Source: Ginglymostoma cirratum
Taxonomy: Eukaryota
Assembly: GCA_024137785.1 (NCBI GenBank)
Contig: JAHRHZ010000024.1
Location: 33,154,644 to 33,218,643, forward strand
Reading direction: 5' to 3'
Length of the DNA stretch: 64,000 nucleotides
Shown here piece by piece: positions 4,362 through 61,160 of the stretch. The notes beneath the pieces are model-generated. The model was not told the origin of the DNA. It saw only the letters and a list, made by a program, of their open reading frames with translations, and made no database searches. The position numbers and the translations under genes are program-made. The stretch's first letter is position 1; each line of letters opens with the position of its first letter.

Positions 4362-4486
4362 AACAACATGGTGTAGAGCTGGATGAACACAGCAGGCCAA
4401 GCAGCATCAGAGCAGGAATGCTGACGTATCGGATCTGGACCCTTCTTCAGAAATTCTCCAGCACTGGCAGTCCCTACTACCTCTGT
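4362..4486. mobile_element. Penelope family A fold-back mini-insert (inverted hammerhead arm plus forward tail)
   Basis: Minus arm 4362-4454, plus-strand tail ttctccagcactggcagtccctactacctct; 13-bp TSD agaaattatatgc at 4349-4361 and 4487-4499. Confidence 0.88.
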
Positions 4487-4897
4487 AGAAATTATATGCG
4501 GCTGTGTTTACTCTGAGAACAATGGGTTGTTTTAAGGGATTACATAGCAAATAACAGATTTTTGCAATTCACTCCTTAGAAAACAAAAACTATCTAGCAA
4601 TAATGTGAGACACTGCATCTCTGGAAATGGCTGCATAGATAACAACAGATACCCAAGAGTGATGACATGGGGTGCGTAGTTACATAAATAACAACAATGT
4701 CTCAGTGTTTCTACAAAGACCACAGTTAACCAGGATTGATTACAGAGCAAGCAGTGAATATTTGGGAAGTGCTACACTTAAAGCAAGGTATTATCAGACA
4801 GCAGCCTCACTTTACATCTTACAAATCTATAAGCTACAGCTAAAATCATCAAACTCAGTCAAGTTTACAGATCTCAAATTGTGAATTTAATGGAAGT

Positions 4898-5223: not shown

Positions 5224-5295
5224 AAAACTGGTAGAATTTGAATCAAGGCCATCGATTGCTATCTGCTGTCTCACATCTAAGACAAATGGTGACTG

Positions 5296-5386
5296 AAAAC
5301 AAAAAGTACTGGAGATCACAGCAGGTCAGGCAGCATCTATGGAGAGAAAGCAAGCCGATGTTTTGAGTCTACACAACTCTTCAGAG
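5296..5386 (-). mobile_element. Penelope terminal fragment (family C)
   Basis: Matches 54706-54810 (ggagatcacagcaggtcaggcagcatct..gcaagc..ttttgagtct..ctcttcaga). Confidence 0.7.
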
Positions 5387-11565: not shown

Positions 11566-12045
11566 TCAGACATGAACAAAAGTGCTAAACTCTATAAGGG
11601 AGGTGAGAGCAACCACCTTGATATCAAGGCAGCATTTGACCAAGCGTTGCATCAAAACTCTCAGCAAGATCCACTACAGCAACTCAGCAACGCTCCCCTC
11701 CAAAAGGAGCAGTGAAAGAAGGCTGTCTACCCTCAGAGATAGTAGGAACTGCAGATGCTGGAGAATCTGAGATAACAAGGTGTAGAGCTGGATGAACACA
11801 GCAGGCCAAGCAGCATCATAGGAGCAGGAAAGCTGACATTTCTGGCCTAGACCCTTCTTCAGAAAGAAGGCGGCCCTTCTTCTGGTGAAGGGTCTAGGCC
11901 CGAAACGTCAGCTTTCCTGCTCCTATGATGCTGCTTGGCCTGCTGTGCTCATCCTGTCTACCCTCACTTTGTCAAGGATAAATCTGGGGTCGGTGATAAA
12001 TGCTAGCCTAACCAGAGAAACCAACATCTCAAAAATCAATTTTTT
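11566..12045 (+). mobile_element. Deleted fragment of the tRNA-headed LINE (RT piece plus 3' tail), interrupted by a Penelope fold-back
   Basis: LDIKAAFDQALHQ RT motif; tail gataaatgctagcctaaccag matches the SINE/LINE tail. Confidence 0.7.
11736..11953. mobile_element. Penelope family A fold-back element with two opposed hammerhead motifs
   Basis: Minus arm with tail 11736-11865, plus arm 11880-11953; 13-bp TSD ctgtctaccctca at 11723-11735 and 11954-11966. Confidence 0.92.
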
Positions 12046-14548: not shown

Positions 14549-14784
14549 ATATTCAGCACGTTTTGAAGAGACAAAAGAAGAAGGTCACTGACTTGAAAGG
14601 CTAACTTATTTCTCTCTCCAAAGGTCCTGAGCAAATCTGATTTTTTTTTTCTAATAATGGTAATTAAGCTGTGTAAAACGTAGGAAATTGCTTCAAAGTT
14701 GATAAGTTGAATCAAGAGTGTAAATCACAAACCCCCCCTTATCCTATTAAGATACACTAAACAGGGCCGATGATCTTGGCCCTG

Positions 14785-14881
14785 TTCTGAGGAAGGGTCA
14801 CTGGACCCAAAACATTAACTCTTTTCTCCTTCACAGATGCTGCCAGACCTGCTGAGCTTTTCCAGCAACTTTGTTTTTGTT
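14785..14881 (+). mobile_element. Penelope family B solo unit starting at the hammerhead
   Basis: ctgaggaagggtcactggacccaaaacatt; imperfect 15-bp TSD gccgatgatcttggc / gcccatgatcttgcc at 14766-14780 and 14882-14896. Confidence 0.8.
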
Positions 14882-16157: not shown

Positions 16158-17113
16158 TTGCTAGTAACTGTAAATTAACTCAAAAGTAGAAACAACTCCT
16201 CAGAGAACATTATATGAACAGGATTCTGTTGTCAAACTAAAAATGTGCACATCCATCAAATAACTGAGGAACGTAACATGAATTTGAGTGGCTGTGTGAT
16301 GCCAGGTATGTAGGACATACATCTCAACAGGTGCCAGACTGTATTAAACAACATATCCTGTTGACCGTTTCCAGCAAGTAGCATCCACTTGTGCTTGCAA
16401 GTTACAGAAAAGTATTTCCACCATGAGATGTGATCGTCTATTAGCAATCAGCTATTAAATGATCCAAACTGTGTTCCACAACAACACTGAAAACCATTTT
16501 CAGATCATCAGCCGGGTTCACGGTAAGATGCATTCGAGTGTTCTAACAGTTACACAAATACCGTTTTACGTAGGCAAAAAGGCATTTGCACCTTTCCAAA
16601 AAAAGGGAGACAATCCATGCTGCATCTCTACAAAAACACCCTGATCAATCAGAATCTACCTGCCTGGGTTGAGAATCAAACTTGATGGTGAACTAGTCTT
16701 GCTGCATCCCCATGCAAATCAGTACCCTCTTTTCAAGTTAAATAAAATGGTGCTTTGCCATTCAAGCCTGTTTCTCGTGCCCTTTTTTGGGGAGTGCAGG
16801 ATGAATAGCTTCAATTTCTAGTCTCCTTTTAGCAATATTCAAGTCCTTAAAGGACAATGAGAAGTTATTGGATTAGGTGTTAAGTGTTCAGAGAGAAAAT
16901 AGTGCAGTGTATATTGGTCCCAATGATCCAATCACAACTACACTGTCACAAAAATTCTGCGTTAGAAACACAAATTTGCACAATTGCTATGCCATGCTTG
17001 GTTTTATAATGGTCCTGTGAAATGCATTGAGATGTTTTATTACATTAAAGGCACCGTATCAATACAGTTGGTTTTTTCCTAACTTAGTGGAATAGGACAA
17101 TAACCTAAAGCAT

Positions 17114-17244
17114 TTCTGAAGAAGGGTCTAGGCCCGAAACGTCAGCTTTCCTGCTCCTCTGATGCTGCTTGGCCTGCTGTGTTCATCCAGCTCTACACCT
17201 TGTTATCTCAGGTTCTCCAGCATCTGTAGTTCCTGCTATCTCTC
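17114..17244 (+). mobile_element. Penelope family A solo ~130-nt unit (hammerhead plus terminal repeat plus tail)
   Basis: Starts ttctgaagaagggtctaggcccgaaacgtc, ends tcctgctatctctc; possible TSD aagcat at 17108-17113 and 17245-17250. Confidence 0.9.
17116..17143 (+). ncRNA. Minimal type I hammerhead ribozyme motif
   Basis: CUGAAGA-A-GGGU(CUAG)GCCC-GAAA-CGUC; stem I weak in this copy. Confidence 0.7.
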
Positions 17245-18078
17245 AAGCATACATGCTGTCTTTTCCTGAGTTTACTTCTGAAGATCAAATGTAAAATTAC
17301 CACACAGAAGCATTTAGGAGAAAAACCAGTTACAAAGAGCCCAAAAAAGGTCTGCAGTGAGTGAAGGATATTTTTGTTTCGCATGTTATTGGTGGGCAGA
17401 GGATGTGGGGTCTTTGATTCTCTGCTTAGGAATTTATTTCTTGCAGCATCGTGGATAACAATGAGAAGTAACTCTCAGATTAATGGAGAGCACCTAAGAA
17501 TGTATTATTTTCTTTATCTAATTGGTAGAACAAAGCATGACTAATTACTGCCTTCAGTCATCTACAGTCATTTGTCATGCCCATTTACTGGTGTCTCACT
17601 ACTTAGTAGAGAAGAGCAGGAAAAAAAACAATAAAAATATTTTTGTCCATTTTAAATCCTAGTTCTTCTATGCTGTCAGTTTCTTCAGCAGCAGCAAATC
17701 ATTGCATGCATTGTGGCCAATAACAATATGAGGGATCAGTGTTAGCAATTAGAAATTCATCTACATTCAGTTAATGTGAATTCTTCAGGATCCCATCAGG
17801 AAATTAGATTCAGGAAAATTAGCATGCAACTCAAACTCATTCCAGTATATTAAAAAGGGTGGAAAAAAAAAACAGATGTCTGCTAGAATCAAACCCAGTT
17901 GAGAACAGGACCATGCACTGTCAGTCTACTCATCTTGCTCCATTTTTAGGCTACCTTCACTCAGGAGTTTAACCAATTATTTCTGAAAAAGTTAATTATC
18001 TGATAAGATACATGTGCTTGGTACTGATACTGGAACATTTGGCTAAATGTAATATTTCACAGGGAAGAAAGCAAAACA

Positions 18079-25458: not shown

Positions 25459-25797
25459 GGAGACATGGTAGCTGAGTGGTAATCCACTTGACTAGTAATC
25501 CAGACGCTCAGGATGTGCATTTTAATGGAAGTTGGCGGGATTTCAATTCCATTAAAGTCTTGAATTAATGACCACCAATAATCATTGTTATAAAAACATC
25601 TGATTCACAAAACTTTCAGAGATAGTAGGAAGGATCGAGGCCCAAAACGTCAGCTTTCCTGCTCCTCTGATGCTGCTTGGCCTGCTGTGTTCATCCAGCT
25701 CTACACCTTGTTATCTCTGATTCACAAAACTTACCCAGTTTTCCTCAAGTAAGGCTCCAGACATACAGCAGTGTGGCTGACTCATAACCACACTCTA
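25459..25797 (+). mobile_element. Decayed tRNA-headed SINE/LINE head, interrupted by a Penelope insert
   Basis: ggagacatggtagctgagtggtaat..gactagtaatccaga..aaaaacatctgattcac..ctccagacatacagcagtgtggctgactc. Confidence 0.7.
25616..25715. mobile_element. Penelope family A fold-back mini-insert
   Basis: Inverted tail tip agagatagtagga fused to forward arm aggatcgaggcccaaaacgtc; 17-bp TSD tctgattcacaaaactt at 25599-25615 and 25716-25732. Confidence 0.9.
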
Positions 25798-29500: not shown

Positions 29501-30444
29501 GCAGAAGTATGCAAATCATAAGTGTTCCTGAAGTACAATGTTGAAGGATTAGTGATGTGAGATCTGTGCTCCAGCAGGCATGATGAGGTGGTGAGACGGG
29601 TGATTTGCTGATGTCAACTCATGTGGGCAAAAAGTTGAGGAGGATGGTGGTAATGGAGCATGCAGGAGGGACATTGCTCTGAAAACATAGTTGGATGATA
29701 GCCACGAAATGAAATCGGTAAACTGCTGCCACCTCGTACCAGCTGGATTTAAAGGTCAGGAACGTGCGCTACCAGTTTCTCCTGAAAGGGAAGGAGAATT
29801 GAAAGAGTCATAAAATAGAGGCAAGTTGGGCTATTAATGTTTGCAAATGCAAGGAAATAAGATAGATGTCCCTCAGTACAGGATTCTGAAATCACCATTT
29901 AAAGCTCAAAGGGAAAATTGGAAAAATTTTTCTCAACATTGAGATTCTGAATTTTTTCATTCTTAGCCTATTTCTGCTTTTCTTGCCAATGTCCATACAG
30001 AACAGAGAGGGGAAGGCCTCATCTGATGTTTCAATCTGCACATTCGCATTTCTTTTTCTTTCCTTTGATGTTTTTATTAATACTGCATGCCACAGTTCAA
30101 AACAGCATGACAGTATGCATGGAGCTCACGGGTACTTATGTTTGAAATACTAGTTTCTAAACAAAAAATGGTAAGTTTGAGCCCCTGTCTCCGTTAGGGT
30201 TAAAGCAACAGGAAGGTCTGAATGGGGAGCTATAAAGAAGGGGAAAACATCCCACAGCAGAGCAAGGAATTAGCTAATTTAACAATAGCATGGCTGCAAA
30301 ACTGTAGCTTTAGGCAAATTACTGCAGTGAGTCACTGGAAGGCACAAAATTGGCATTTCACAAAATGAAATTCTTTTCTCAATTTTCTGCTCTCCCATTG
30401 CTGACTTGACCTGCGACTCACTCCATATTGTAGATATAACTGGG

Positions 30445-30915
30445 CAGGGACTGGACCAGGGAGGAAAGTCCAAGTCAAGGTAAGAAGAGATGAATTCTGT
30501 GAGGAAGGTGCAGACAGAAACAATGGATCTGCCCAGGCAGACCTGTTTGTGAATCTTAGGAAGGAGGCAGAAGCAAGCTTTGTGGTGCTGGGGGACTGTC
30601 AGCTTGGAGGTGGTGGAAGGAAGAGATCGCCAAATCAAATGGGGCTCGTGACCATGGTTGACACAATGGCCTGATGTTCTATCGTGATCCAAGTGGAGAT
30701 AGGAGGAGGTATCTGAGAGCTGGCGCTCAGCCTCTGCAATGTAGATGTCAGCCTGCCAGACCACAACAGCACCAGCCTTATTGGCAGGCTTAATAACAAA
30801 GTTAGGGTTGTATCTGAGAGCTCAGAATGCAGTCAGCTCCCAAGAGGATAGGTTGGAATGAATAAACGGAGGCAGGGAAATTGAGGTGACCAATGTCACA
30901 CTGACAGTTCTGAAT
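30445..30915 (-). mobile_element. Penelope reverse transcriptase N-terminal fragment
   Basis: VIKPANKAGAVVVW..YIAEAERQLSDTSSY..LLPKIHK..GRSIVS..TEFISSYLD. Confidence 0.88.
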
Positions 30916-31977
30916 GAACTGACTGTTCATCCTTTGCAAGTCCAGCTAACAGCCAATGGCGAGCCATCTGACTGAAGGAGGCATCACAAGGGAGCAGACA
31001 CATGCCCTCCTTCCAATTGTTCATGTTGGCACACTCTACTGGTGGGACAACGAAGAGTAGGTACAAAGTAACCCCTTGCTAGCCCAAGAATTTGGAGGTC
31101 CACAATAACTCCACTACACAGTCCAGTGCAGAAAAGTCAAGAGCAGGAGCATATCACAAGACTTTTTTGGTCTGTATCATAAATGTGGTGTCTTTCTACA
31201 TAAACCGCTGAAGCTCTTCAGAGGAATGTTTTTCAATCTACTCAAAGTGAAATGTTGTCAGGCTAGAATTCATAAAAACATGCAGGGGGACACTTGAGAG
31301 TGAGCAACAAAGTATTGATGCCAGTGTTGAGAGACGGAATTAATTGCAATAAATGTCATTTTCTGCACTGTTATAACAATGAAATATCTGATAACAGGCT
31401 GTCGACATAGTTAATAAATTACTACCTAAAAATCACAATGAATGGGTCTTCTAGAAAAGACAAACAGGAAACCATTTCTGCCCAAGCAATTATTCTTTGT
31501 CTCTAATGATCTACCCAGTGCTTTCGGTTCAAATGCCTGGCGTTTACCCCACATAACACCTCTGTTACAGTTTTAATGCATTTTCTTTTTCAGTTCCTCT
31601 GTGGAAAATTTTGTTACAAACGCAATTTACTACTTAACAATGAATACCATGTTCAATACACGAAGAAATAAAGATCTGAGGATAATCATGTTACACCACT
31701 CCTGGGAAGTACTGTGATGCTGTAATTGTAATTGAGCAGTGCCAAGTCCTTTTTTCCTCAATTGTCTTCACACAAGACTGGCCTTTTGAAGGAAAGTACA
31801 AAGATGTGAATTCCACTATAGTGATAGAACGATCAATACACTGAGGTCCAGACAATGCTGCTGGCGTTATTGTAAGAATCAGCATAATTAGAATGAAGAG
31901 GTGGGAGAAATTACTGACATATAGAAACAATATTGCTGGAGAAATTCAGCAGGTCTAGCAGCATTTATGGAGAGAAA

Positions 31978-32908
31978 ACCGATGTCCATTTCAAGCACAC
32001 TGACTCCCACAGCTACCTGGAATACACCTCCTCCCACCCACCATCCTGCAAAAATGCCATCCCCTATTCCCAATTCCTTCGCCTCCGCCACATCTGCTCC
32101 CAGGATGAGACATTCCACTCCCATACATCTCAAATGTCCTCATTCTTCAAGGACCGCAACAACCCCCCACAGTGGTCGAGAATGCCCTCGACCGTGTCTC
32201 CTGCATTTCCCGTAACACATCCCTCACGCCCCGTCCCCGCAATAATAACCAAAAAAGAATCCCCCTCGTCCTCACGTACCACCCCACCAACCTCCGGATC
32301 CAACGCATCATCCTCCGACACTTCCGCCATCTGCAATCAGACCCCACCACCAAAGACATTTTTCCCTCCCCACCCTTATCTGCCTTCCGGAGGGACCACT
32401 CCCTCCACGACTCCCTTGTCCGCTCCACACTCCCCTCCAGCCCCACCACACCCAGCACTTTTTCCTGCAACCGCAGGAAGTGCTACACCTGCCCCCACAC
32501 CTCCTCCCTCACCCCAATCCCAGGCTCCAAGAAGACTTTCCACATCAGGCAGATGTTCACCTGCACATCTGCCAATGTGGTATACTGCATCCGCTGTACC
32601 CATTGTGGCTTCCTCTACATCGGGGAAACCAAGCGGAGGCTTGGGGACCGCTTTGCAGAACACTTGCGCTCAGTTCGCAACAAACAACTGACCTCCCAGT
32701 CGCGAACCATTTCAACTCCCCCTCCCCTTCCTCAGACGACATGTCCATCCTGGGCCTCCTGCAATGCCACAGTGATGCTACCCGAAGGCTGCAGGAACAG
32801 CAAATCATATTCAGCCTGGGAACCCTGCAGCCCAATGCTATCAATGTGGATTTCACAAGCTTCAAAATCTCCCCTCCTCCAACCGCATCCCAAAACCAGC
32901 CCAGCTGA
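31978..32908 (+). pseudogene. Penelope ORF C-terminal part, two frameshifts (~32165 and ~32690)
   Basis: Three overlapping track ORFs (31933, 32172, 32480) join into one RT-thumb/GIY-YIG protein ending QNQPS*. Confidence 0.88.
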
Positions 32909-33192
32909 TCTCCACCTCCCTAACCTGTTTTTCCTCTCACCTATCCCCTCCTCCCACCTCAAGCCACACCCCCATCTCCTATCTACTAACATCATCCCGC
33001 CCCCTTGACCTGTCCGTCCTCCCTGGACTGACCTATCTCCTCCCTACCCCCCCTACCTACACTCACTTTTACTGGCTCCATCCCCGCCTCTTTGACCTGC
33101 CTGCCTCCTCTCCACCTATCCTCTCCTCTATCCATCTTCTATCCGCCTCCCCCTCTCTCCCTATTTATTTCAGAACCCTCTTCCCCTCCCCC

Positions 33193-33228
33193 ATTTCTGA
33201 TGAAGGGTCTAGGCCCGAAACGTCAAGT
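33193..33228 (+). ncRNA. Minimal type I hammerhead ribozyme motif
   Basis: AUUU-CUGAUGA-A-GGGU(CUAG)GCCC-GAAA-CGUC-AAGU; 4-bp stem I, predicted cleavage after 33224. Confidence 0.8.
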
Positions 33229-35525
33229 TTTCCTGCTCCTAAGATGCTGCTTGACCTGCTGTGTTCATCCAGCCCCACGCTTGTTATCTCTGACATTTCA
33301 AGTCCGGTGAATTTCAGTCCTTCTTGAGAACTGAATGCAAAGAAAATTAGTACCTAACCTCATTAACTCCCCAGGATTGTTGGTTTTTGTAGAGGGCAAT
33401 CAGAACCAGAATACACTGCAGCTTGGGAGCGGCTGCAGCAAAAAGCATTCATTGATGGTTTCAAAAAGAGAAAGGAGAGACATGGTAGTAGAGGCAGAGT
33501 GGGAGGAGACACCCTTAGACTATTAGTGGTGGTTTAAACTGGTTGAGCCATTGAGCCATTTGGCCTGTTTCTGTTCTGTAAAGTCCATAAGCTGCACTTG
33601 ACACAACAACATTCACAGTAGTCTGACAGAAGTAATAAGAAGGTTGAGCAGACGTTACATTTCTTTATCAAAAATGAGGAGTGAAGTGCATTATGCTGAT
33701 GAGATGGTACATGTCATCACAGTAAGTGATACGATGTCACATGATTATTCTCAGTCTCTTGCAGCCTTTTGGCAAGATTAAGATGCAGTTTTTAAATAAA
33801 GTTAACATCTTCTTTAACTCAGCAGATGGTAAATATTTTTCAGGAGCTCCACAAGATCAAAATTATTATCACATTAAGCATTTGAATCCCTGGATTTATG
33901 TTTGAGAGACATGATTTTGTTTGCTGCTCCAAAACTGATATTCTTAAACTTCTAAAATCCCTTTAATAACTGAGGGCTGTGAATGGAAGTAAACAGATTG
34001 GTAAAGTACTAAGCTAAAAGATGGTCACACTTCATACACCGTCTCCTCATACATGCAGCTTGGAAACAAATATCAGACAAGGGCAAATGAACATCAATGC
34101 TGAAACTGTCATGGAGTCAGATGACTGAAGATGCTTCAAACTGGCAGGTGGGGCCTAAAGCCAGGATTCTCATTCCCCATTACCATTTCTATCAATTTTC
34201 ATTGGTTGGGGATAACAGTGTAGATGTCAAACCACCCATCTTTGCTGCCTCCATTATGGGATTAAGATCTTTAAAGCCCCTGTAATTTTAGTGGAATCGG
34301 ACCTCTTCAGTAAAATGTGATTCATTTATATGTCTATCTGAAAGACATGGACAATGTCGCAGACTGCAGGGAGAGGTCTGCTCTCTCTTCCAGTGAATGC
34401 TTAGAGGAACGCTGTCTAACAGCAGCTTGGATTACACCTATAGTGGGGCCCTGAAGTGACACAGATACAAAGTAAAATGGGATATGCTCTTATACCTTCA
34501 GAATACAGTGTGCACGTTTCCAGTAAAAACAATAGAAATGAGATGATTTGGGAATTAATAATGCCCAAGAGAAAGTTCTGGGTCATTCACAAAAGGTGTT
34601 GGGACAGGCAGAAGGATACAGCAACTGTTAAGGGCTAAGCGGTGCGACAGAGTGTTAAAAAGTCAAATATCACTAGTGCACACATTGAAATTAACCTCGT
34701 ATCTGCAGGTAAAGCAACCTTTGATGAGGATCAACTGCAGGCTCAAAATAAAATCGTGAAACTTCGGTACAGAAGAGGAATGTACTAAACAAATCATTAA
34801 GAGTGCAGTGAATGAAAGCAGATAAGCATAACTTGCTCTTATCTGTACTCTAAATGAAATTTACTTCAGTTCAACTGGGCTGCTAAAATGGAACACAGTT
34901 ATGAATAAATGCAAAAAATTCTCTTTTTTTGTGCACCATGCTATCATTATTCCTTATCAGATTCATTTTATGCTACATATGACAAGCAAAAGCACAGCAG
35001 GAAGGGAAAACAAAAGCTGTAATTGATAACACAATAACTCGGTGCTTGCTTAACTTGAGCTCAATCCTCACTTCCCTGAAACCAACCCCAGCTCCAATCT
35101 CAGATGGCCTTCTCCAAGCCAAAACTGCAGCCATTCTGTTAAGGGCTATCAGCAGAAACACAATCACATATCACAACATAAGCATCTTCTTGATGCCAAA
35201 ACCCACACAACTGATTCTAAAATGAGTCTGACATGTTACTCTGTAGCAAACCAACAAGAATTCCTTGAACCCGATCTCTGAACATGCTCACACTACAAAC
35301 TCTTCAATTCCGTCTCCAAACTGTAATGATCAGTTTTGTCTGTAATTGAAACATAGTTTGGAGCATTCTATTTGCTTCATCTTTGTTCCACAGAGATTCA
35401 AATGCTTTGCAATTCAAACTATTTATATAAATATGTCCTTCTTTTATCCCCATTCTAATTGTTAATTGTTGTTGTTGTTGCAGTTTCATTAAGCTCATGC
35501 AAATAAAGCACCAAAAAATACAAAA

Positions 35526-35992
35526 CACCCCCTGCCACTCCCTGGGTGACATGTCCATCCTGGGCCTCCTTCAGTGTCACAATGATGCCACCCGCAAACT
35601 GGAAGAAAAGCACGTCATAATCCATCTCGGGAGCCTACCTCAATGGCCTAAACGTGGATTTTACCAGTTTCAAATTCTCCCCACCCCGGCCTCATACCAT
35701 GACCAACCCTCCCTCTCATCCCCACCTCCCTGACCTGACAAAACCTGTCTATCTTCTTTCCCACTGATCCGCCCCACCCTTCCCACTGACCAGTTCCCAC
35801 CACTCCCTACCTGCACTCACCTATCATCATCCCACCTACCTTCCCCAGCCCCAAACCTCTTCTCTATTTATTTTGGAGCTCCCCTCGCCCTCCCCCATTT
35901 CTGAAGAAGGGTCCTGACCCGAAACGTCAATTTTCATGCTCCTCTGATGCTGCCTGGCCTGCTGTGTTCCTCCAGCTCTATACTTTTGTTAC
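35526..35992 (+). mobile_element. Penelope 3' fragment (subfamily related to A)
   Basis: DMSILGLLQCHNDATRKLEEKHVIIHLGSL; C/T-rich UTR; hammerhead motif. Confidence 0.9.
35897..35932 (+). ncRNA. Minimal hammerhead ribozyme motif
   Basis: CUGAAGA-A-GGGU(CCUG)ACCC-GAAA-CGUC; U-A replaces the U-G pair of family A. Confidence 0.75.
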
Positions 35993-38744: not shown

Positions 38745-39333
38745 TGAGATAACAAGGTGCAGAGCTGGATGAACACAGCAGGCCAAGCAGCATCAGAGGA
38801 GCAGGAAAGCTGACGTTTCGGGCCTACNNNNNNNNNNNNNNNNNNNNNNNNNNNNNNNNNNNNNNNNNNNNNNNNNNNNNNNNNNNNNNNNNNNNNNNNN
38901 NNNNNNNNNNNNNNNNNNNNNNNNNNNNNNNNNNNNNNNNNNNNNNNNNNNNNNNNNNNNNNNNNNNNNNNNNNNNNNNNNNNNNNNNNNNNNNNNNNNN
39001 NNNNNNNNNNNNNNNNNNNNNNNNNNNNNNNNNNNNNNNNNNNNNNNNNNNNNNNNNNNNNNNNNNNNNNNNNNNNNNNNNNNNNNNNNNNNNNNNNNNN
39101 NNNNNNNNNNNNNNNNNNNNNNNNNNNNNNNNNNNNNNNNNNNNNNNNNNNNNNNNNNNNNNNNNNNNNNNNNNNNNNNNNNNNNNNNNNNNNNNNNNNN
39201 NNNNNNNNNNNNNNNNNNNNNNNNNNNAAACGTCAGCTTTCCTGCTCCTCTGATGCTGCTTGGCCTGCTGTGTTCATCCAGCTCTACACCTTGCTATCTC
39301 AGATTCTCCAGCATCTGCAGTTCCTACTATCTC
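38745..39333. mobile_element. Penelope family A fold-back element spanning a 400-N gap (38828-39227)
   Basis: Minus arm without tail, plus arm with tail; 13-bp TSD taaaataataatt at 38732-38744 and 39334-39346. Confidence 0.9.
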
Positions 39334-40380
39334 TAAAATAATAATTAACCAAATTTCACAGAGCCATGTATTCCAATGCAAGAATAGCAGCTTTAGATTC
39401 AAATAAGGGGAAAACTTCCATGACCATAAACTGGTCAAGTTGAAAATAATCAAGAAGCGCATACATTATCTGAGCCATGTGATGCAACATTCCCTTTTAT
39501 TAATTTATTCAACATTTTTATATAAATTTATTACACCAAGTAACGACAGGTCATTTAGAAAAAGTCCTGTAACTTACTTTCAAGCCTCATTACCAAAACA
39601 TCATCCAAATGAAGGCCACAATGATATAATGGAATATCAGCACATTTCCACAATAAGCCAATAAGTGGCCACAGCATAAACAGAATGAGCTTTCATACTT
39701 GCACTGCAGGAAGTATGTTAAGACACAATATCGTACCAAAATGGCTAAATACTGTTTGATAATGGGATTGCCTAATGATAAAAACACAAATATCTTTTGT
39801 TCTATGCACTTTAGGCTTTTTAAGCTTGAGCAAAACGTCACCCCGTTTCTAATTAAAAAACAATCAAGAGAAACCACATTCTGTAAAAACGATTTACTGG
39901 TACAACTATCATACTGGAGCAATTTTAGACAAAGTCCGATGCGCCCTTTTCAAATGCCAACCAACCAGTATTTGGCCCACGTGCTGGGAGCAGAACAAAC
40001 ATTTTTTCCTATGTGTTGTTCAAAATGCCAAAAATAATCTAAAGTTTGGAATCATGACTGTTTTAATAACAGGCCAAGCAAAAAAATCCAGGCTTGGGAC
40101 AAATCACACCACAATTTCAAGTGGTTCTGACATTCTGTCTGAAATCTCAAGCAGGTTTCAGCAGTCCCTGTCAACTGATTCATTTTCCAGGTGTCATTAC
40201 ATGAACCATTTCATTCAATACAGCATGGCCGGCCTTGGCCTTTTGACGAAGAAAACATTTCCAGCAAGCAGAGGGCTGGCAAGGTTTGGTTGGCACTTTG
40301 TGTCACTGGATCTGGGAACAGAAGTTTCCTTTGGCAGTGTGTCGCCTCTGTGTGACACTCAGTAATGGAAAGGATTTTGG

Positions 40381-42619: not shown

Positions 42620-42713
42620 AGAGATAACAAGGTGCAGAGCTGGATGAACACAGCAGGCCAAGCAGCATCAGAGGAGCAGGAAGGCTGACGTTTCAGGCCT
42701 AGACCCTTCTTCA
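42620..42713 (-). mobile_element. Penelope family A solo arm (no tail), truncated at the hammerhead core
   Basis: gagataacaaggtgcagagc..gacgtttcaggcctagacccttcttca. Confidence 0.88.
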
Positions 42714-49202: not shown

Positions 49203-49785
49203 TGGCTCACCAAGCTGGCTTGTTTTTGTTCAAACATTTCATCACCATTCTAGGTGACATCATCAGTGGACCCTCTGATGAAGCGATGTCATTCTACTCC
49301 GCTTGGAATTTATACTGTCTGCTCCGTTATGGTGAGTACTGTCATTTCCACTTTTGATCTGTGTGGGTTTATATATGGGGTCCAATTCTATATGTTTGGT
49401 GATTGAAGTAAGGATGGAGAACCATGCCTCTACGAATTCCTGTGCATGTCTATGTTTGGCTTGGGCTACTATGGTTACCATGTCCCAGTTAAAATGATGG
49501 CCTTCATTGTCTGAATGTACAGATATTAAGGAGAGTTCCTTATTGGATTGGACACCATATACAAACCCATACAGATCAAAACCGGAAGTGACACTGCTCA
49601 CCATAACGGATCAGACAACATAAATTCCAAGTGGAGTAGAATAACATTGCTTCATCGGAGGCTCCATTGATGATGTCACCTAACATGATGATGAAACGTC
49701 TGAGCAAAAACAAGCCAACTCAGTGAATAAGTCAACAAACTCATCCACAACCCGAGCTACAGATCTTTGCCAATATTTTAAACAA
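49203..49785. mobile_element. Penelope family E (Poseidon-like) fold-back inserted in CR1
   Basis: Minus arm encodes SLISVHSDNEGHHFNWD..EFVEAWFS..IELDPIY (GIY-YIG C-terminus); plus arm 49545-49785 is its inverted copy with extra tail. Confidence 0.88.
49231..49268 (-). ncRNA. Hammerhead motif with 6-bp stem II (family E); second copy at 49665-49702 (+)
   Basis: CUGAUGA-U-GUCACC(UAGAAU)GGUGAU-GAAA-UGUU on minus; plus copy UUGAUGA..GAAACGUC; each copy carries transition mutations. Confidence 0.65.
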
Positions 49786-54149: not shown

Positions 54150-54347
54150 ATGTGGAGGTGCCAGTGTTGAACTGGGTTAGACAAGGTCAGAAATCATACA
54201 ACACCAGGTTACAGTCCAACAGTTTTATTTGAAAACACAAGTTTCGGAGTCTTACTCTCACCTGAAGAAAGAGTAAGACTCCAAAAGCTTGTGTTTTTAA
54301 ATAAACCTGTTGGACTACAACCTGGAGTCATGTGATTTCTGACCTTG
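54150..54347. mobile_element. Penelope family D fold-back with hammerhead-like motif
   Basis: ~80-bp inverted arms (54182-54258 and 54270-54347), ~32-nt tail on the left only; ctgaaga-aa-gagt(aag)actc-c-aaaagctt (left arm has cgaaa). Confidence 0.8.
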
Positions 54348-54705
54348 ATTAAGAATCACAAGACAGAAAAGAATGGTTAAGTATCAGGCTTGAACATGGA
54401 GCCTACCATAACTTCTGAAACACGATCAATGTCTGGGTGGAGTTCTGTGGTTTTCTGACGAAAAGACCATACCCATGGGTAAATAAGAATTGCATGAGGA
54501 GCAGAGGTCCAAAGACAGAGAAGGGCACCTTACTTAGCTGGTATCAAGGATTTGGTATGGTGTAACGCTAAGGATCAAGACCATGTGACATATTGAGGGA
54601 GGTTTTCTGCCTTTGCTCTCTCTGTACAGAGCATTATGCACCAGATCTATATCTTGGAATGTTGAACATTGAGAATAACACAGCCATGAATTGATCACCT
54701 CATCT

Positions 54706-55360
54706 GAAAACAACAATGCTGGTGATCACAGCGGATCAGACAGCATCCATGGAGAGAGAGAGCAAGCTAATGTTTTGAGCTAGGATGACTCTTCATCAGA
54801 GCAGAAGAGAAGTGTGGAGGGGACAGCGTTTATGCTAGAGTTGGCCAGGGGTGGTGGGTGTGAAGTGCTGGTTGAGAAAAGACGCTGATAGTTCAGATTA
54901 AGTGATCAGAATGTGAGAATAGCAGAACAATGATGTATCTGTCATCTGATGAAGGGTTTAGGCCCGAAACGTCAAGTTTTCCTGCTCCTATGATGCTGCT
55001 TGACCTGCTGTGTTCATCCAGCCCCATGCTTGTTATCTCGGATTCTCCAGCATCTGCAGTACCTTTTATCTCTGACAGTCCCACTGAGTTGGGGGGGAGC
55101 AGAGGGAAGGCAGGGAGGGGAGAGAGAACATGGTGATAGAGAATGTAACAATTAAAGCTTGTGGTGTTGAACTTAATATTAAGTCCAGAAGGCTGTAAAC
55201 TGCCCAGTCTGAAGATGAGGTGTTGTTCCTTTCCTGTAGCCAGTCATTTTAACACAGTGTCCTGCTCGCCTGCCCACTTGTCTGTCCTCGGCATGCTGCA
55301 GTGCTCCAGTGAATCACAGCACAAACTGGAGGAACAATACCTCATCTTCAGACTAGGCAG
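54706..55360. mobile_element. Penelope family C 3' end (minus, 54706-55230) with inverted ORF piece (plus, 55231-55360)
   Basis: Minus EQHLIFRLGSLQPSGLNIKF; plus PVASHFN..LSVLGMLQC..KLEEQYLIFRLG; degenerate hammerhead ctgatgaagagtc at ~54770-54809 (-). Confidence 0.85.
54944..55073 (+). mobile_element. Penelope family A solo ~130-nt unit nested in family C
   Basis: Starts at ctgatgaagggtttaggcccgaaacgtc (54946-54973), ends with tail gtaccttttatctct. Confidence 0.9.
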
Positions 55361-57298
55361 GAAGTCATGTACCACTCTAACCTCAGATCACAATAGGCCT
55401 ACATGGAATTGTTTCAGATAGCAACACTTACACACTAAAATGACAAGCACAGATGATACAGGCAGGGATCTGACATAACATGGTATTTAGCAAATTAGCA
55501 GTACTGAATGGATATTCCACAGCAAAAACAATGGGAGGTGCGGTTTCTCCTGGTGGTCATTTCACCTCTTAAAAGTTTGAGTATTCATTGTGTTTCTAAT
55601 GGCTTTGTTTACACTATGTTTTATTTGAACAAAAGGATTCAGGTTATGCTGAAGGCACAATTTTTGGTGGATGTCCCCTGCTCTATCAGCTAATCGATCA
55701 GCATTAATATTGAGTAATCTTTGACACTATGGAGTCAGACATACTAAATACTAGGATAAGGCCAATCAAGTTGCTTCACATCAAACCAATAAAGCTTAAA
55801 ATTGCTGTTAACCAAGAGTTAAATAATTGAAAATTTCTGGGAGACAAATTTGCAACAATTATGGTCCATTGCTTTACATCAACATGGCTTCTGGTTATTT
55901 CCTCCAAGTGAGCTAAAGGTTCATACAGCATTAGTCCAGTCTGGTTTGAAACCTGTATCCAAAAGCAAAAGCTCTGTGCTAACCCTATTGCACCATCCAT
56001 CCCACTCACTACCTCCTGTTATACCTCTGGCTTGCTGTACAACCGTGAAATAAATTCAATGGTCGTGATAATTCAAAGTCAGTATTTGCACAAAAGAAAA
56101 AGCAAATCTAACTCATCCTGCAACTTTAAACAAAAAAAAATGGACTGCAGACTTTTTAGTGTAAACTGAATTTAATTGCTTCAATGACTTTAATGAAGTA
56201 ACTTTGACTTCTTGTGAGTATGAAGGAGTTTCCTAACCCGTGTTGATGTATTAAACTGAAAACACAGAGAAGCATTTTGAACCATGATCTGCAGATGTTG
56301 CATCAAAGGAACAATATTGAGCAACCCAACTAATATGTTATTTTCTTCATAGTCATATTTATTAAACTGCCCCTTATTACAAATTTAGGTTTTGCATTAT
56401 TATTTGTTGTCAATCAAAGTGAGTGAAACAATGAATAAAAAATTTACGGCATCTTATGAATTTCTAATTACAATAATGAAATTCAAATGAATTCTGAACA
56501 GTTCAATATATTACTTTATAGAAAATTACGGCAATCTGATACCTCTGGGCCTTATCATAAACAGTCAGGGCGGCAAGTTATTAAAGGAAAAATCACAGTG
56601 GTAAATATGCTTTAGGCATAAAATGTGTATCGTTGGGTATCTAACATACAGAGCAACCTCCCTCTAAGTGGGTCAGCTGAATAGATTCTGAGCGAGGGTA
56701 TACGCTTTACTTGTGCAGTTGCATCCTATAGAGTATCAGGGTCACAGAGCTTTACAGAAGAGAACGAGAGTCTTTGCTCCATCGTGTCCGCACCAGTCAA
56801 CAAACACCTCCCATTTTCCAGGACTTGGCCTGTCGTGTTGCTATGTCGTTTCGCATGTTCAACAAAATACTTCTGCAATGTTGTGAGGGTTCCCGCCTCC
56901 ATCTCCATTTCGGGCAATGAATTCAAGATATGTCCAACCTTCAGTTGAAGAAAATGCCTCCTCAAATCCCTTCGAAACCTCCCACTTCTTAATCTTAAAT
57001 CTGTGTCCCCAGTTATTGACCCCTCCATTTTGGGAAAATGTTGCTTCCTCAAAATTTTGCACACTTCAACCACATTTTCCCCTCAACCTCTTTTGCCTGA
57101 AGGCAAGCACTCCCAGCTAATCCAATCTCTACGACAGTTGAGAGTTCCAGTCAAGGTAACATCCTGGTGAATCTCCTCTGCACCCTCTCTAATGCAATCA
57201 TCCTTCCTACAGTGTAACGATCGAAACCACACAATACTCCAGTCGTAGGGCTGGATGAACACAGCAGGCCAAGCAGCATCATAGAAGCAGGAAAGCTT

Positions 57299-57326
57299 GA
57301 CGTTTCGGGCCGAGACCCTTCATCAG
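57299..57326 (-). ncRNA. Minimal hammerhead ribozyme motif
   Basis: CUGAUGA-A-GGGU(CUCG)GCCC-GAAA-CGUC. Confidence 0.75.
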
Positions 57327-58173
57327 AAATGGGGCAGGGGAAGAGGGTTCTGAAATAAATAGGGAGAGAGGGGGAGGCGGATAGAAGATGGATAGAGGAG
57401 AGGATAGGTGGAGAAGAGGCAGACAAGTCGAAGAGGCGGCGATGGAGCCAGTAAAGGTGAGTGTAGGTTGGNNNNNNNNNNNNNNNNNNNNNNNNNNNNN
57501 NNNNNNNNNNNNNNNNNNNNNNNNNNNNNNNNNNNNNNNNNNNNNNNNNNNNNNNNNNNNNNNNNNNNNNNGTAGATAGGAGATGGGGGTGGGGCTTGAG
57601 GTGGGAGGAGGGGATAGGTGAGAGGAAAAACAGGTTAGGGAGGTGGAGATCAGCTGGGCTGGTTTTGGGGAGGGGAGATTTTGAAGCTTGTGAAATCAAC
57701 ATTGATACCATTGGGCTGCAGGGTTCCCAGGCTGAATATGAGTTGCTGTTCCTGCAGCCTTCAGGTGGCATCACTGTGGCATTGCAGGAGGCCCATGGGC
57801 CCTGCAGCCCAATGGTATCAATGTTGATTTCACAAGCTTCAAAATCTCCCCTCCCCCAACCGCATCCCAAAACCAGCCCAGCTCATCTCCGCCTCCCTAA
57901 CCTGTCCTTCCTCTCACCTATCCCCTCCTCCCACCTCAAGCCCCACCCCCATCTCCTATCTACTAACCTTATCCCGCCCCCTTGACCTGTCCGTCCTCCT
58001 TGGACTGACCTATCTCCTCCCTACCCCCCCTACCTACACTCACCTTTATTGGCTCCATCCCCGCCTCTTTGACTTGTCTGCCTCCTCTCCACCTATCCTC
58101 TCCTCTATCCATCTTCTATCCGCCTCCCCCTCTCTCCTTATTTATTTCAGAACCCCCTTCCCCTCCCCCATTT

Positions 58174-58201
58174 CTGAAGAAGGGTCGAGGCCCGAAACGT
58201 C
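58174..58201 (+). ncRNA. Minimal hammerhead ribozyme motif
   Basis: CUGAAGA-A-GGGU(CGAG)GCCC-GAAA-CGUC. Confidence 0.75.
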
Positions 58202-59564
58202 AAGCTTTCCTGCTTCTATGATGCTGCTTGGCCTGCTGTGTTCATCCAGCCCCACACCTTGTTATCTCGGACTCTCCAGCCTCTGCAGTACCTTTTATCT
58301 CTAATACTCCAGTCGTGGTCTAGTTAATGTTACATACAGTTCCATTATAACCTCCATGCTCTTGTATTCGATGAATTTGACTAACAAAGGCAAGTATCCT
58401 ATATGACTTCTTAACCACCCTATTCAGGGTCCTGTTGCCTTCAAGGATTTGTACAATAAGGTCCTGCTGATCCTCTGTACTTTCACAGGTCCTACCATTC
58501 ATCACATGCTGTCTTGTTTTGTTAGTCATCCCAAAATGCAATGCCTCACAGTTTTCTAGAATAATTTCCATTTGCCACTGCCCCGCCAACCTGACCAGCT
58601 AATCTATATCATCCCCGTGGTCTCAGGCTTTACTCCTGGCTTTTAAACACACACTAATTTTGCTGTTATCTGTGAACTCAGTGATCATACCTCCTACAGT
58701 CATATCGAGATCATTAATGTACACAACAAACAGCAAGGGACCCAGCACTGAACTTTGTGGTATGCAACAGAGCACAGGCATTATATGTCACAAAGAAATC
58801 ATTTGACCATCACCCTTTGCCTCCAACCACTAAGCCAATTTGGATCAAATTTGCCAAATTGCCCTGCATCCCAGCTCCATTGAACAAGTTAAATTAAGAG
58901 CCATTCCATTCCACAGTGTCTCCTCACTTGGCATTTTAAAAACACAATGATACTCAATTAGCTTACAATCACATTTTGTAATGGAGAAATGTACAGTTCT
59001 GAACTTTTTAAAAAATCATTATGTTTTCTTCTATGGAATTGTCACACAAATCCTGAAACTATCAACTGTACTTTTTCCAGATCTCACCATGTACATTTGG
59101 CACACAGACTCTAGGCCAGTAACTAGTGGTTTCACATCATGGATACTGATATAAACATGTTATAATAATATCCCTTTTAACTCTTTGAGCATCCCACTTT
59201 TTGCAGAATTAAAATTAATACCTTTTTGTATCGATATTAGAATATCAATGGTGCCAATACATCAGATATCTAAAACTGTCAAAGTTAATCAACCTTTAAA
59301 AGGAAATTGCTAACTCTAAAATTAAAATTCTTTATCAAAAACATTATTTGGGTTATCAGCGCGATGGTAAAATATTGTGCCTCTACTTTGGGGATCTGGT
59401 ATCATTATTTCAATTGTTTTTTTGGAAGTGTCTACTTGCAGAGGGGAAGGTTTCTATCTATTTTAGTCTGAGAGATTTTGCTCCAGGAACAGGACTTATT
59501 TCAGTCCACACAAAACCGTGTCCTGTGACTCTGACCAGTATTCATCATCATATCTCAATAATTC

Positions 59565-61160
59565 TCACAGCATCGCAAAGACGTACAGCACAGAAAAAGG
59601 CCCTTCATCCCATTAAGTATGCACCAGTCAAAAACAATCACCGAATTATTCTAAATAAAGACCGAAAGAATTGTGGATGCTGTAAATCAGGAACAAAAAC
59701 AGAAATTGCTGGGAAAGCTCAGCAGGTCTGGCAGCATCTATGGAGTTCTAAGGAAGGTCACTCGACCCGAAATGTTAACTCTGATTTCTCTCCACAGATG
59801 CTACCAGACCTGCTGAGCTTTTCCAGCAATTTCGGTTTATGCATCTAATTATTCTAACCCCATTTTCTAGCTCCTGGCCCACAGCCTTATGTACTTTGGC
59901 ACCACAAGAGCACATCTAAATACTTCTTTAATGTTTGAGGGGTTTTGCCTCTATCACTCTTGTAGGCAGTGAGTTCCAGATTCCTACCATCTGGATGAAT
60001 AAGTTTTTTCCTCACATGTCCTCCAAACCTTCTGCCCCTTACCTTAAATTTATGCCCCAGCTATCGATCCTTCCATTAAGGGAAAAGTTTCTTTCTGTTT
60101 GCCATATCTATGCCTCTCATAATTTGAAACATCTTAATCATTTCCCCTCTCAATCTCTGTTGCCCTAAGGAAAACAACACCAATCTGTGGAATCTCTTGT
60201 CACAACTGAAACTGTCTAGCCCAGGCAACATCCTGGTAAACCTCCCATGCACTCTCTCCAGTGCTATCACATCCATCTTATAATGTGGATTTCCGAACTC
60301 TCACAATACTCTAGTTGTTGCCTAACCAATATTTTATACAATTCCAACTTAACTCGCCTGCTCTTAAACTCTAAGCCTCAGCTAATAAAGGACAGGATAA
60401 TATCTGCCTTCTTCATTACTTTATCCACTTGTCTCAGACTAGAAGGCATAAGTTTAAGGTGAGGAGTAAGTGGTTTAGAAGAGATCTTAGAAAATTGATT
60501 TTTTTCACCTAGAGGTTGGTTGAAATACGGAACATTCTGTCCGAGAGGGTGGTAGTGACAGGCACTCTCATAACATTTAAAAAGCACTTGGATGAACACT
60601 TAAAATACCAGAGCATAATCGTTTATGGACTAAGGGCAGGTAAATTAGATTAGTGTAGCTTGTTGGTCGGTAGAGAGGCCGAAGAGTCTGTTTCTATCTG
60701 TATGACTCTATGACCTATACTGATATCTTATGGGACTGGTGTACATGCACACCAAAGTCCCTCTAATTTTTGGAACTTTCCAAGTTCCTATCGTTCATCA
60801 TGTATTCTCTTGGCTCGTTTGCCCTGCCCAAGTGCTTCACCTCACCTTATCTAGATTGAATTCCATTTGCCACTGATCAACCCATGTGACCAGCTCACCT
60901 GTATCCTCCTTTAATCTAAGGCTATACTGCCCAGTATTTTAGCAATCTACTATTTGTCACCAATTTTTGAGAACTTACAGATCAACTGCCCTACATTAAA
61001 GTCTGAACCATTCACATAAATCATAAGCAACAAGAGCCCCAACCACTGACCCTTGTGATCCCAATGGACACAGACGTCCAGTCAAAAAAATACCCCTCAA
61101 CGATCACTCTCTGCTTCCTGCCACTCAACCAATTCTGGATCCAATTTTCCAAATTTCCTT
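59565..61160 (-). mobile_element. CR1 3' portion with nested inserts
   Basis: MDVIALERVHGRFTRMLPGL; contains a plus-strand CR1 3' end at ~60435-60713 ending tatgactctatga. Confidence 0.85.
59655..59841. mobile_element. Penelope family B fold-back
   Basis: Minus arm with tail 59655-59745, plus arm starts ttctaaggaaggtcactcgacccgaaatgtt; TSD aattattctaa at 59644-59654 and 59847-59857. Confidence 0.88.

Follow-up and report, generated by a model that had tools for sequence, protein, structure and literature searches.

A recurrent 5' boundary at the ribozyme edge of short Neptune-type Penelope-like insertions, and its possible origin in run-off reverse transcription

Why do short, hammerhead-bearing insertions from several repeat families in one stretch of shark DNA begin at nearly the same base of the ribozyme, well upstream of the site where the RNA should cut itself? 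The initial annotation of this 64,000-nt stretch (hereafter the window) named ten such boundaries, all of which are present, and offered two readings: a short SINE-like RNA mobilized by a Penelope reverse transcriptase (RT), or a strong RT stop or template-switch site at the ribozyme. The boundary is real and reproducible, and is a property of a known retroelement class rather than of a new element; as a repeat, the element is abundant and ordinary. The explanation that we favor, at a probability of roughly 0.6, is that internally primed RT runs off the 5' end of uncleaved RNA, whose start is predicted to lie at the ribozyme, and so leaves promoterless copies.

The unit at 17114 (Table 1) has 14 BLAST partners inside the window and corresponds, in sense orientation, to the last 130 nt of longer Penelope-like element (PLE) copies there. 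Its start is 17111 if a 3-nt overlap with the target site duplication (TSD) is given to the element, and 17114 if it is given to the flank; the 6-bp TSD has a probability of about 0.008 of occurring in place. By its motifs, the unit carries a minimal type I hammerhead with a predicted self-cleavage site: every feature of the min-HHR descriptor (PMC4209133) is found, namely CUGANGA, the unpaired base, helix II with G10.1-C11.1, GAAA, the palindromic 15.2-16.2, and UH. The conserved middle part, carrying a 4-bp hairpin, leads to the first 3' end. Across 11 copies from several families, 79% of helix II cells are paired, as are 81% of those in the 3-bp helix I, which shows two-sided changes in two pairs and is reduced to 2 bp in the 17114 subtype; helix I, helix II and the hairpin covary (nine two-sided cells, 1/500 shuffles), a figure inflated by the kinship of the rows. 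An Rfam scan at the gathering cut-off gave no matches, and single-strand folds of six sequences were no better than those of shuffles (z -1.3 to 0.3). One fold showed pairing of the upstream pyrimidines with the core, and a cofold of two ribozyme copies paired via helix II rather than the helix III palindrome.

Four of the BLAST partners run far upstream, into a broken ORF (31954-32899) that represents the C-terminal third of ~890-aa proteins, with 88-90% identity to whale shark and zebra shark proteins, and that aligns to residues 599-891 of an 893-aa relative annotated as RT plus GIY-YIG. In this window copy the RT is present as its C-terminus alone, frameshifted, and the GIY-YIG domain match (E 1.4e-4) scores 22.5 bits against a cut-off of 22.6. 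Between RT and endonuclease (EN) lies a Cys linker in which C765 and C770 are invariant and C773 nearly so (alignment A3); the linker motif, CX2-5CxxC, has been named by others and is common to Nematis too (PMC8557442). Judged from the order of RT and GIY-YIG in the sequence together with this linker, the parent is an EN+ PLE of Neptune type, of which no full-length copy lies within the 64-kb window. TSDs of 9-17 bp rise above a random-pair null in 7 of 19 insertions, and copies have two alternative 3' ends 33-34 nt apart. Inverted 5' arms, the optional tail and TSDs all occur among the window insertions, and inverted arms with a tail on either side are the published PLE insertion pattern (PMC8557442). 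Since the units equal the terminal 100-130 nt of long copies with RT/GIY-YIG, and TSDs flank many of them, they are retrotransposition products, and the link to Penelope RT drawn by the initial annotation is borne out.

The window also holds a separate PLE RT N-terminal remnant at 30282-30857 (-), with E 4e-23 to P0006. The inverted 5' arm of the longest copy, 31925-31978 (-), comes from another PLE family and begins about 4 nt or less before that family's predicted cut. This arm and the copy at 31961-33293 are framed by a possible 7-bp TSD (null 0.11), which suggests that 31925-33293 is one insertion assembled from the RNAs of two PLE families.

Table 1. Features of the Penelope-like insertions in the window. 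Signed offsets are relative to C3 of the CUGANGA core; arms are named by single positions.
Feature	Position	Strand	Details
Short unit	17114..17243	+	Minimal hammerhead, downstream module and 34-nt tail of Neptune-type PLE; arm 17116 (+) starts at -5 (or -2)
Minimal type I hammerhead	17113..17146	+	Helix I 5' strand 17113-15; core 17116-22; unpaired A 17123; helix II 17124-27/17132-35; GAAA 17136-39; predicted cut after 17143
Optional tail	17210..17243	+	Between two 3' ends (17209, 17243), corresponding to two inferred RT start sites
6-bp target duplication, left copy	17108..17113	+	Last 3 nt match element too
6-bp target duplication, right copy	17245..17250	+	
Longest copy	31961..33293	+	Broken RT C-terminus, Cys linker, GIY-YIG, 3' UTR, hammerhead (C3 33197); arm 33197 (+) reaches -1236
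TATA-like box, longest copy	33162..33169	+	6/8 to TATAWAWR; first base at -35
Initiator-like site, longest copy	33191..33197	+	Predicted +1 is A 33193 (-4)
Long inverted pair	57245..58302	.	Arms 57326 (-) to -446 and 58174 (+) to -374; 14-bp TSD; reference for relative's contigs
Long copy, older subtype	35524..35991	+	Arm 35901 (+) to -377; TATA-like box and initiator retained
Head-to-head short arms	11735..11954	.	Arms 11862 (-) at -3 and 11882 (+) at -2 (placed by hand, mismatch at +3); 13-bp TSD; junction filler copies flank beside TSD
Short arm	4365..4488	-	Arm 4450 (-) at -4; own inverted tail in front; 13-bp TSD
Short arm	25616..25715	+	Arm 25629 (+) at +3 to +5; inverted tail end joined via 3-nt microhomology; 17-bp TSD
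Short arm	42620..42713	-	Arm 42714 (-) at +1; TSD looked for, none found
Short arm	54945..55073	+	Arm 54946 (+) at -1; subtype of long copies; nested inside another PLE
Inverted pair	38745..39334	.	13-bp TSD; centre in N gap, which hides the starts of arms 38826 (-) and 39228 (+); unscored
Second family, short unit	14784..14880	+	Begins at helix I; TSD with 9-bp exact core
Second family pair	59650..59841	.	Inverted arm from about +43, direct arm from helix I; 10-bp TSD
Third family, long copy	54690..55358	-	C3 54799; CATAAA at -35; interrupted by 54945 unit
Third family, short unit	5290..5386	-	Begins at about -2
Palindromic pair, another hammerhead family	54182..54347	.	Junction at 5' edge of core

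Boundaries were measured against long copies of the same family, and two of the main-family starts in Table 1 are hand-read. Of the 11 main-family arms whose junction is visible, seven (from 6 of 9 insertions) start at -5 to +5; none of the 11 scorable arms starts between -6 and -373, and none of the seven short arms starts at the predicted cut (+28). Under nine smooth truncation nulls (geometric and log-normal), the chance of finding 6 of 9 insertions in any 11-nt window is at most 2.2e-4, in keeping with the earlier argument that random 5' truncation would not cluster in this way. The distance of ~28 nt to the predicted cut (27-28 nt from C3) and the start of 25629 just inside the core also agree with the initial description. 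Two of its claims stand in part. The inserts had been taken as independent: those at 11865 and 11880 belong to a single insertion, as its two arms, with a shared 13-bp TSD, so the main family contributes six independent short insertions, not seven. The ~130-nt size holds for 17116, 11862 and 54946, and the other four of the seven short arms are about 75-100 nt, stopping at the upstream 3' end or earlier. Absent from the earlier listing were the long copies 33197 (+), 35901 (+) and 58174 (+)/57326 (-), and, in other families, 54799 (-) and 49266 (-)/49667 (+).

The third family, with one long and one short copy, has the same edge. For 14785, 59746, 54260, 62317, 2849, 52651 and 14577, the window holds no long copy of their own family, so these boundaries rest on TSDs, inversions or unique upstream DNA. 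A profile census of 25 units, leaving out the 54260 and 49266 families, comprised 14 short at the ribozyme edge, five long, two cut by gaps, and four starting further inside. The DNA upstream of short copies is unique sequence or inversions. The filler between two arms at 11863-11881 and the inverted tails joined by microhomology at 4454 and 25629 indicate that the edge arises during integration. At 14770-14786, where the 14787 unit has its 5' junction, lies an inverted repeat of 9 bp that is apparently templated by the flank. In another PLE type, an inverted pair at 49207-49726 (hammerheads 49266/49667) is long in both arms, and its TATA-like sites lie at -48 and -109.

Contigs from a relative, which shares 24% of sampled words, were aligned to 57800-58340. 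Depth at 58156 relative to 58251 is 0.48 in X1 and X4 and 0.49 in X12, and over the next 300 nt upstream 0.77-0.88 is retained in X1/X4; these ratios are coarse, being confounded by an indel at 58202, inverted tails and related families, and in X12 the depth is level from 58178 to 58156 (1.02). At least five joints (two of which may be one kind) land at 58168-58171 (-6 to -3) among the 21 distinct joints listed. The commoner subtype, which is the short one in the window, makes up 86% at site 58251, and upstream depth is 48% of downstream, so this subtype must have long copies too and supplies most of the upstream depth in these contigs. Loose ends at 58266-68, among the ends listed, are in keeping with the two alternative 3' ends; none lies at the 5' edge among the best 18 of 1335, where rows at 58203 are distorted by the subtype indel. 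No reads of run X20 aligned to 57800-58340. Pattern scans for the shark unit gave no matches in metagenome, viral and genome contigs, nor did protein scans of viral contigs.

Promoter consensus patterns were used for TATA and initiator scans. In the longest copy the TATA-like box lies 31 nt from the initiator A, giving a predicted start at -4; the box can also be read as antisense AATAAA, and initiator motifs are frequent (5-6 sites in 495 nt). Both motifs are retained in the older subtype, which is only 17/30 alike around them; no DPE match or extra-G cap signature was seen by eye. The best TATAWAWR site falls at -50 to -33 in four of six families (rotation P 0.009), the interval having been picked after viewing the data and the other two families falling outside it. 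As located by these motifs, the predicted promoter lies outside the short unit. A promoter and start within the pLTR have been published for other PLEs (PMC2377424), as have TATA and Inr-like motifs (PMC3846280). In the D. virilis PLE, 46+75 nt separate the start from the ribozyme downstream of it, and the ribozyme edge is there an intron end (PMC2377424; PMC4209133); this start, about 120 nt further up, counts against the run-off reading.

From the identity of the unit, the clustering of its starts, the TSDs and the motif positions we infer promoter activity, an RNA start at the ribozyme, and run-off, in the following sequence. Pol II transcripts would start at the ribozyme's first bases, driven by the TATA-like box (-35) and initiator (-4) of the 3' UTR. 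PLE RT is described as initiating internally on its RNA, at two positions separated by one tail length and on both nicked strands, with a preference for uncut RNA (PMC11167929); here, priming would occur 95 or 128 nt from the RNA 5' end and give a run-off, strong-stop-like cDNA. An RNA that starts at the ribozyme can yield only 95-130-nt run-off cDNA when primed at its first module. Microhomology would then join this cDNA, trimmed by a few bases, to the target or to a second arm. Long copies may arise when a read-through RNA is primed at its downstream repeat, or when the RT jumps between templates. Short copies, lacking a promoter, would be dead ends, but a truncated copy with some 40 upstream bases or more could act in trans as a source of such RNAs, and this would account for how many short copies there are.

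A second, independent family allows the promoter and the ribozyme fold to be compared as markers of the edge. It was found in animal contigs from a prokaryotic genome bin, G001 (this and other prokaryotic bins include many animal contigs with Neptune-type elements, a contamination of the collection), and its ribozyme is identical to an Acropora Neptune motif in the supplement of PMC4209133. This coral-like family has CCAAT and a perfect TATATAAA at -39, with a predicted start at -8. With a query that included 300 upstream bases, and 40 of 110 candidates scored, there were at least 52 matches, 48 of them covering the ribozyme or tail: 17 long, 7 at -223 to -51, 21 at -16 to +10, and 3 at +28 to +32. 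Among 35 arms read base by base, seven start at -10 to -8 (four arms at -10 gain their length from a palindromic junction), one at -16, and the other short ones further in, trimmed arms extending to +10; the ungapped walk ends at indels, so that rows at -256, -43, -43, -42 and +4 are long copies, as judged from the search or from the letters upstream, while the row at -107 ends at a contig end and the near-identical arms of C85 and C227 are merged. Five arms form a second mode exactly at -3, the helix I edge, and two of these may reach -7 via a subtype variant. Helix I begins at -3 in both families, and the edge lies at -4/-5 in the shark and at -8 to -10 in the coral-like family, or TATA+29 to +31; the edge therefore tracks the promoter better than the fold, and the comparison of these two families points to an edge that moves with the putative TATA box and not with helix I. 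One G001 arm (C383, L042) begins exactly at the predicted cut (+28), and another (C227, L039) 4 nt past it; these are possibly rare copies of cleaved RNA.

Could the RT instead stall, or switch template, at the upstream edge of the ribozyme on a longer RNA? The block might be a C-run just upstream or a bound protein, with the hammerhead occupied by a PLE protein or the pyrimidine tract by a host protein, and there is some encouragement for this: pyrimidines make up 77-85% of the upstream 100 nt in the main family, the Anolis ribozyme requires the PLE protein (PMC11167929), and the secondary mode at -3 in G001 fits a ribozyme-edge stop. A filler between two inverted arms at L004:604-630, made of several re-started ribozyme fragments, suggests repeated re-priming. 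Stalling nonetheless seems unlikely. An RT arriving from the 3' side meets the helices first and would have opened them by -4; shuffled sequences fold as well as the short unit (z 0.34); the position of the edge varies from family to family as does that of the TATA box; and no C-run lies at the edge in the coral-like family. The stop at the ribozyme proposed by the initial annotation is thus discrete, as it supposed, but the evidence favors the end of a template over the ribozyme fold. All explanations other than run-off and stalling are, even jointly, unlikely.

A more ambitious and rather doubtful proposal is that PLEs replicate by a retrovirus-like strong-stop and strand transfer over a terminal redundancy. 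The RNA would start at one hammerhead and the cut of the downstream hammerhead would set its 3' end, so that the ~32 nt from start to cut would be the redundancy used by the target-primed run-off cDNA for its jump: a failed transfer would leave a short unit (about half of all copies), and a successful one a long copy with regenerated pseudo-LTRs. Joints in the related organism's contigs fit this idea. Those from 58202 to 58168/58171 occur in single-locus contigs duplicating roughly the start-to-cut segment, 58202 being also the indel site, and one from 58267 to 58171 is a single-locus contig in which the whole short unit is doubled head to tail.

It is quite improbable that the edge is some other processed RNA end (a splice junction or lariat), or was inherited from masters with a truncated upstream repeat. 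The D. virilis intron (416-491) does end 5 nt before C3 (496; PMC4209133), and the shark 3' UTR has a pyrimidine tract with CAG at -26 to -24, but there is no AG at the edge, none of the seven short arms starts at -23, no common first exon lies upstream of short copies, and the CAG is missing from the older subtype; an inherited edge would require the same accident in many families.

Still less probable is the initial annotation's first reading, that of an independent ~130-nt non-autonomous element (SINE-like or a retrozyme monomer) with its own masters, mobilized by PLE RT. One subtype holds six of seven short arms and the other three of four long arms, and hammerhead-bearing non-autonomous PLE derivatives and monomers have been published (bioRxiv 2026.07.22.740005), but short copies do not form clades of their own: on a weak, 76-column tree the short/long label requires three changes, with 201 of 500 shuffles as low, and short 54946 is sister to long 33197 (support 90/94). 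The commoner subtype has long copies genome-wide, judging by the relative's contigs; a pattern search found no Pol III A/B box, the predicted promoter being outside the unit; there is no shared 5' flank and, in the window, no tandem array; and the same edge recurs in several unrelated families and in both arms of inverted pairs. As a candidate class, SINE was set aside for want of an internal A/B box, of an Rfam match and of subfamilies apart from the partner (on the weak tree), and non-LTR retrozyme because window copies show no head-to-tail arrays; the relative's contigs show a few joints that go back. Finally, there is very little to be said for otherwise random truncation in which microhomology to AT-rich targets pulls the junctions to ATTT at -4, despite the 3-nt overlap of the 17114 unit with its TSD and the preference of the PLE endonuclease for ATT (PMC11167929): equal ATT motifs at -34 and -30 hold none of seven boundaries, inverted pairs have their element-to-element junctions, which need no target, at this edge too, 54946 and 42714 show it without microhomology, and microhomology cannot halve depth.

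The element class is already known, and no report of this fixed 5' boundary or of its strong-stop reading was found in the literature, mostly its non-subscription part; Fig. S2 of PMC11167929 may show the step. Should the pile-up coincide with the start of the RNA, PLE promoters could be located in any genome from its dead copies, with no need for RNA data; uncut RNA would be what the RT mainly copies in vivo; and the occurrence of solitary minimal hammerheads by the thousand in animal genomes would have an explanation. If run-off is correct, short copies are a genomic record of PLE copying and not an element of their own. The role of the hammerhead in PLEs has been called "still a mystery" (PMC7761336), and pLTR regeneration has been said to have "no obvious mechanism" (PMC2377424); strand transfer, if true, would give the ribozyme its job and link target-primed with LTR-type replication.

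Among known systems, 5'-truncated insertions of EN+ Neptune-type PLEs are alike in the C-terminal GIY-YIG after a Cys linker, the 3'-repeat hammerhead, inverted 5' arms, the optional 30-40-bp tail, 9-17-bp TSDs and pLTR promoter motifs; their published truncation is variable, whereas over half of the shark arms end inside an 11-nt interval at the ribozyme edge and predicted start (PMC8557442; PMC3846280). Dispersed metazoan min-HHRs share the minimal architecture, are mostly single, widespread and sometimes in opposite-strand pairs, and are described as "probably related to truncated PLEs"; the text of that report gives no 5' boundary analysis or cause (PMC4209133). Anolis Poseidon PAc is alike in its two internal RT starts, priming on both strands, and uncut template, but belongs to another clade, and its in vitro template ends were chosen by the authors, whose text does not discuss RNA start or 5' boundary (PMC11167929). 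Non-LTR retrozymes resemble the shark units in their type I hammerhead, PLE kinship and dispersed monomers; they are tandem, with one mostly canonical ribozyme per unit, and move via circles (PMC7229834; bioRxiv 2026.07.22.740005), whereas the shark short units are single or inverted, minimal, and unpermuted at the cut.

In retroviruses, minus-strand strong-stop DNA is primed 100-130 nt from the RNA 5' end and runs off at the cap. The shark units have no integrase, primer-binding site (PBS) or true LTR; nicked target DNA, not a tRNA, would act as the primer, and the strong-stop-like product would be integrated as such.
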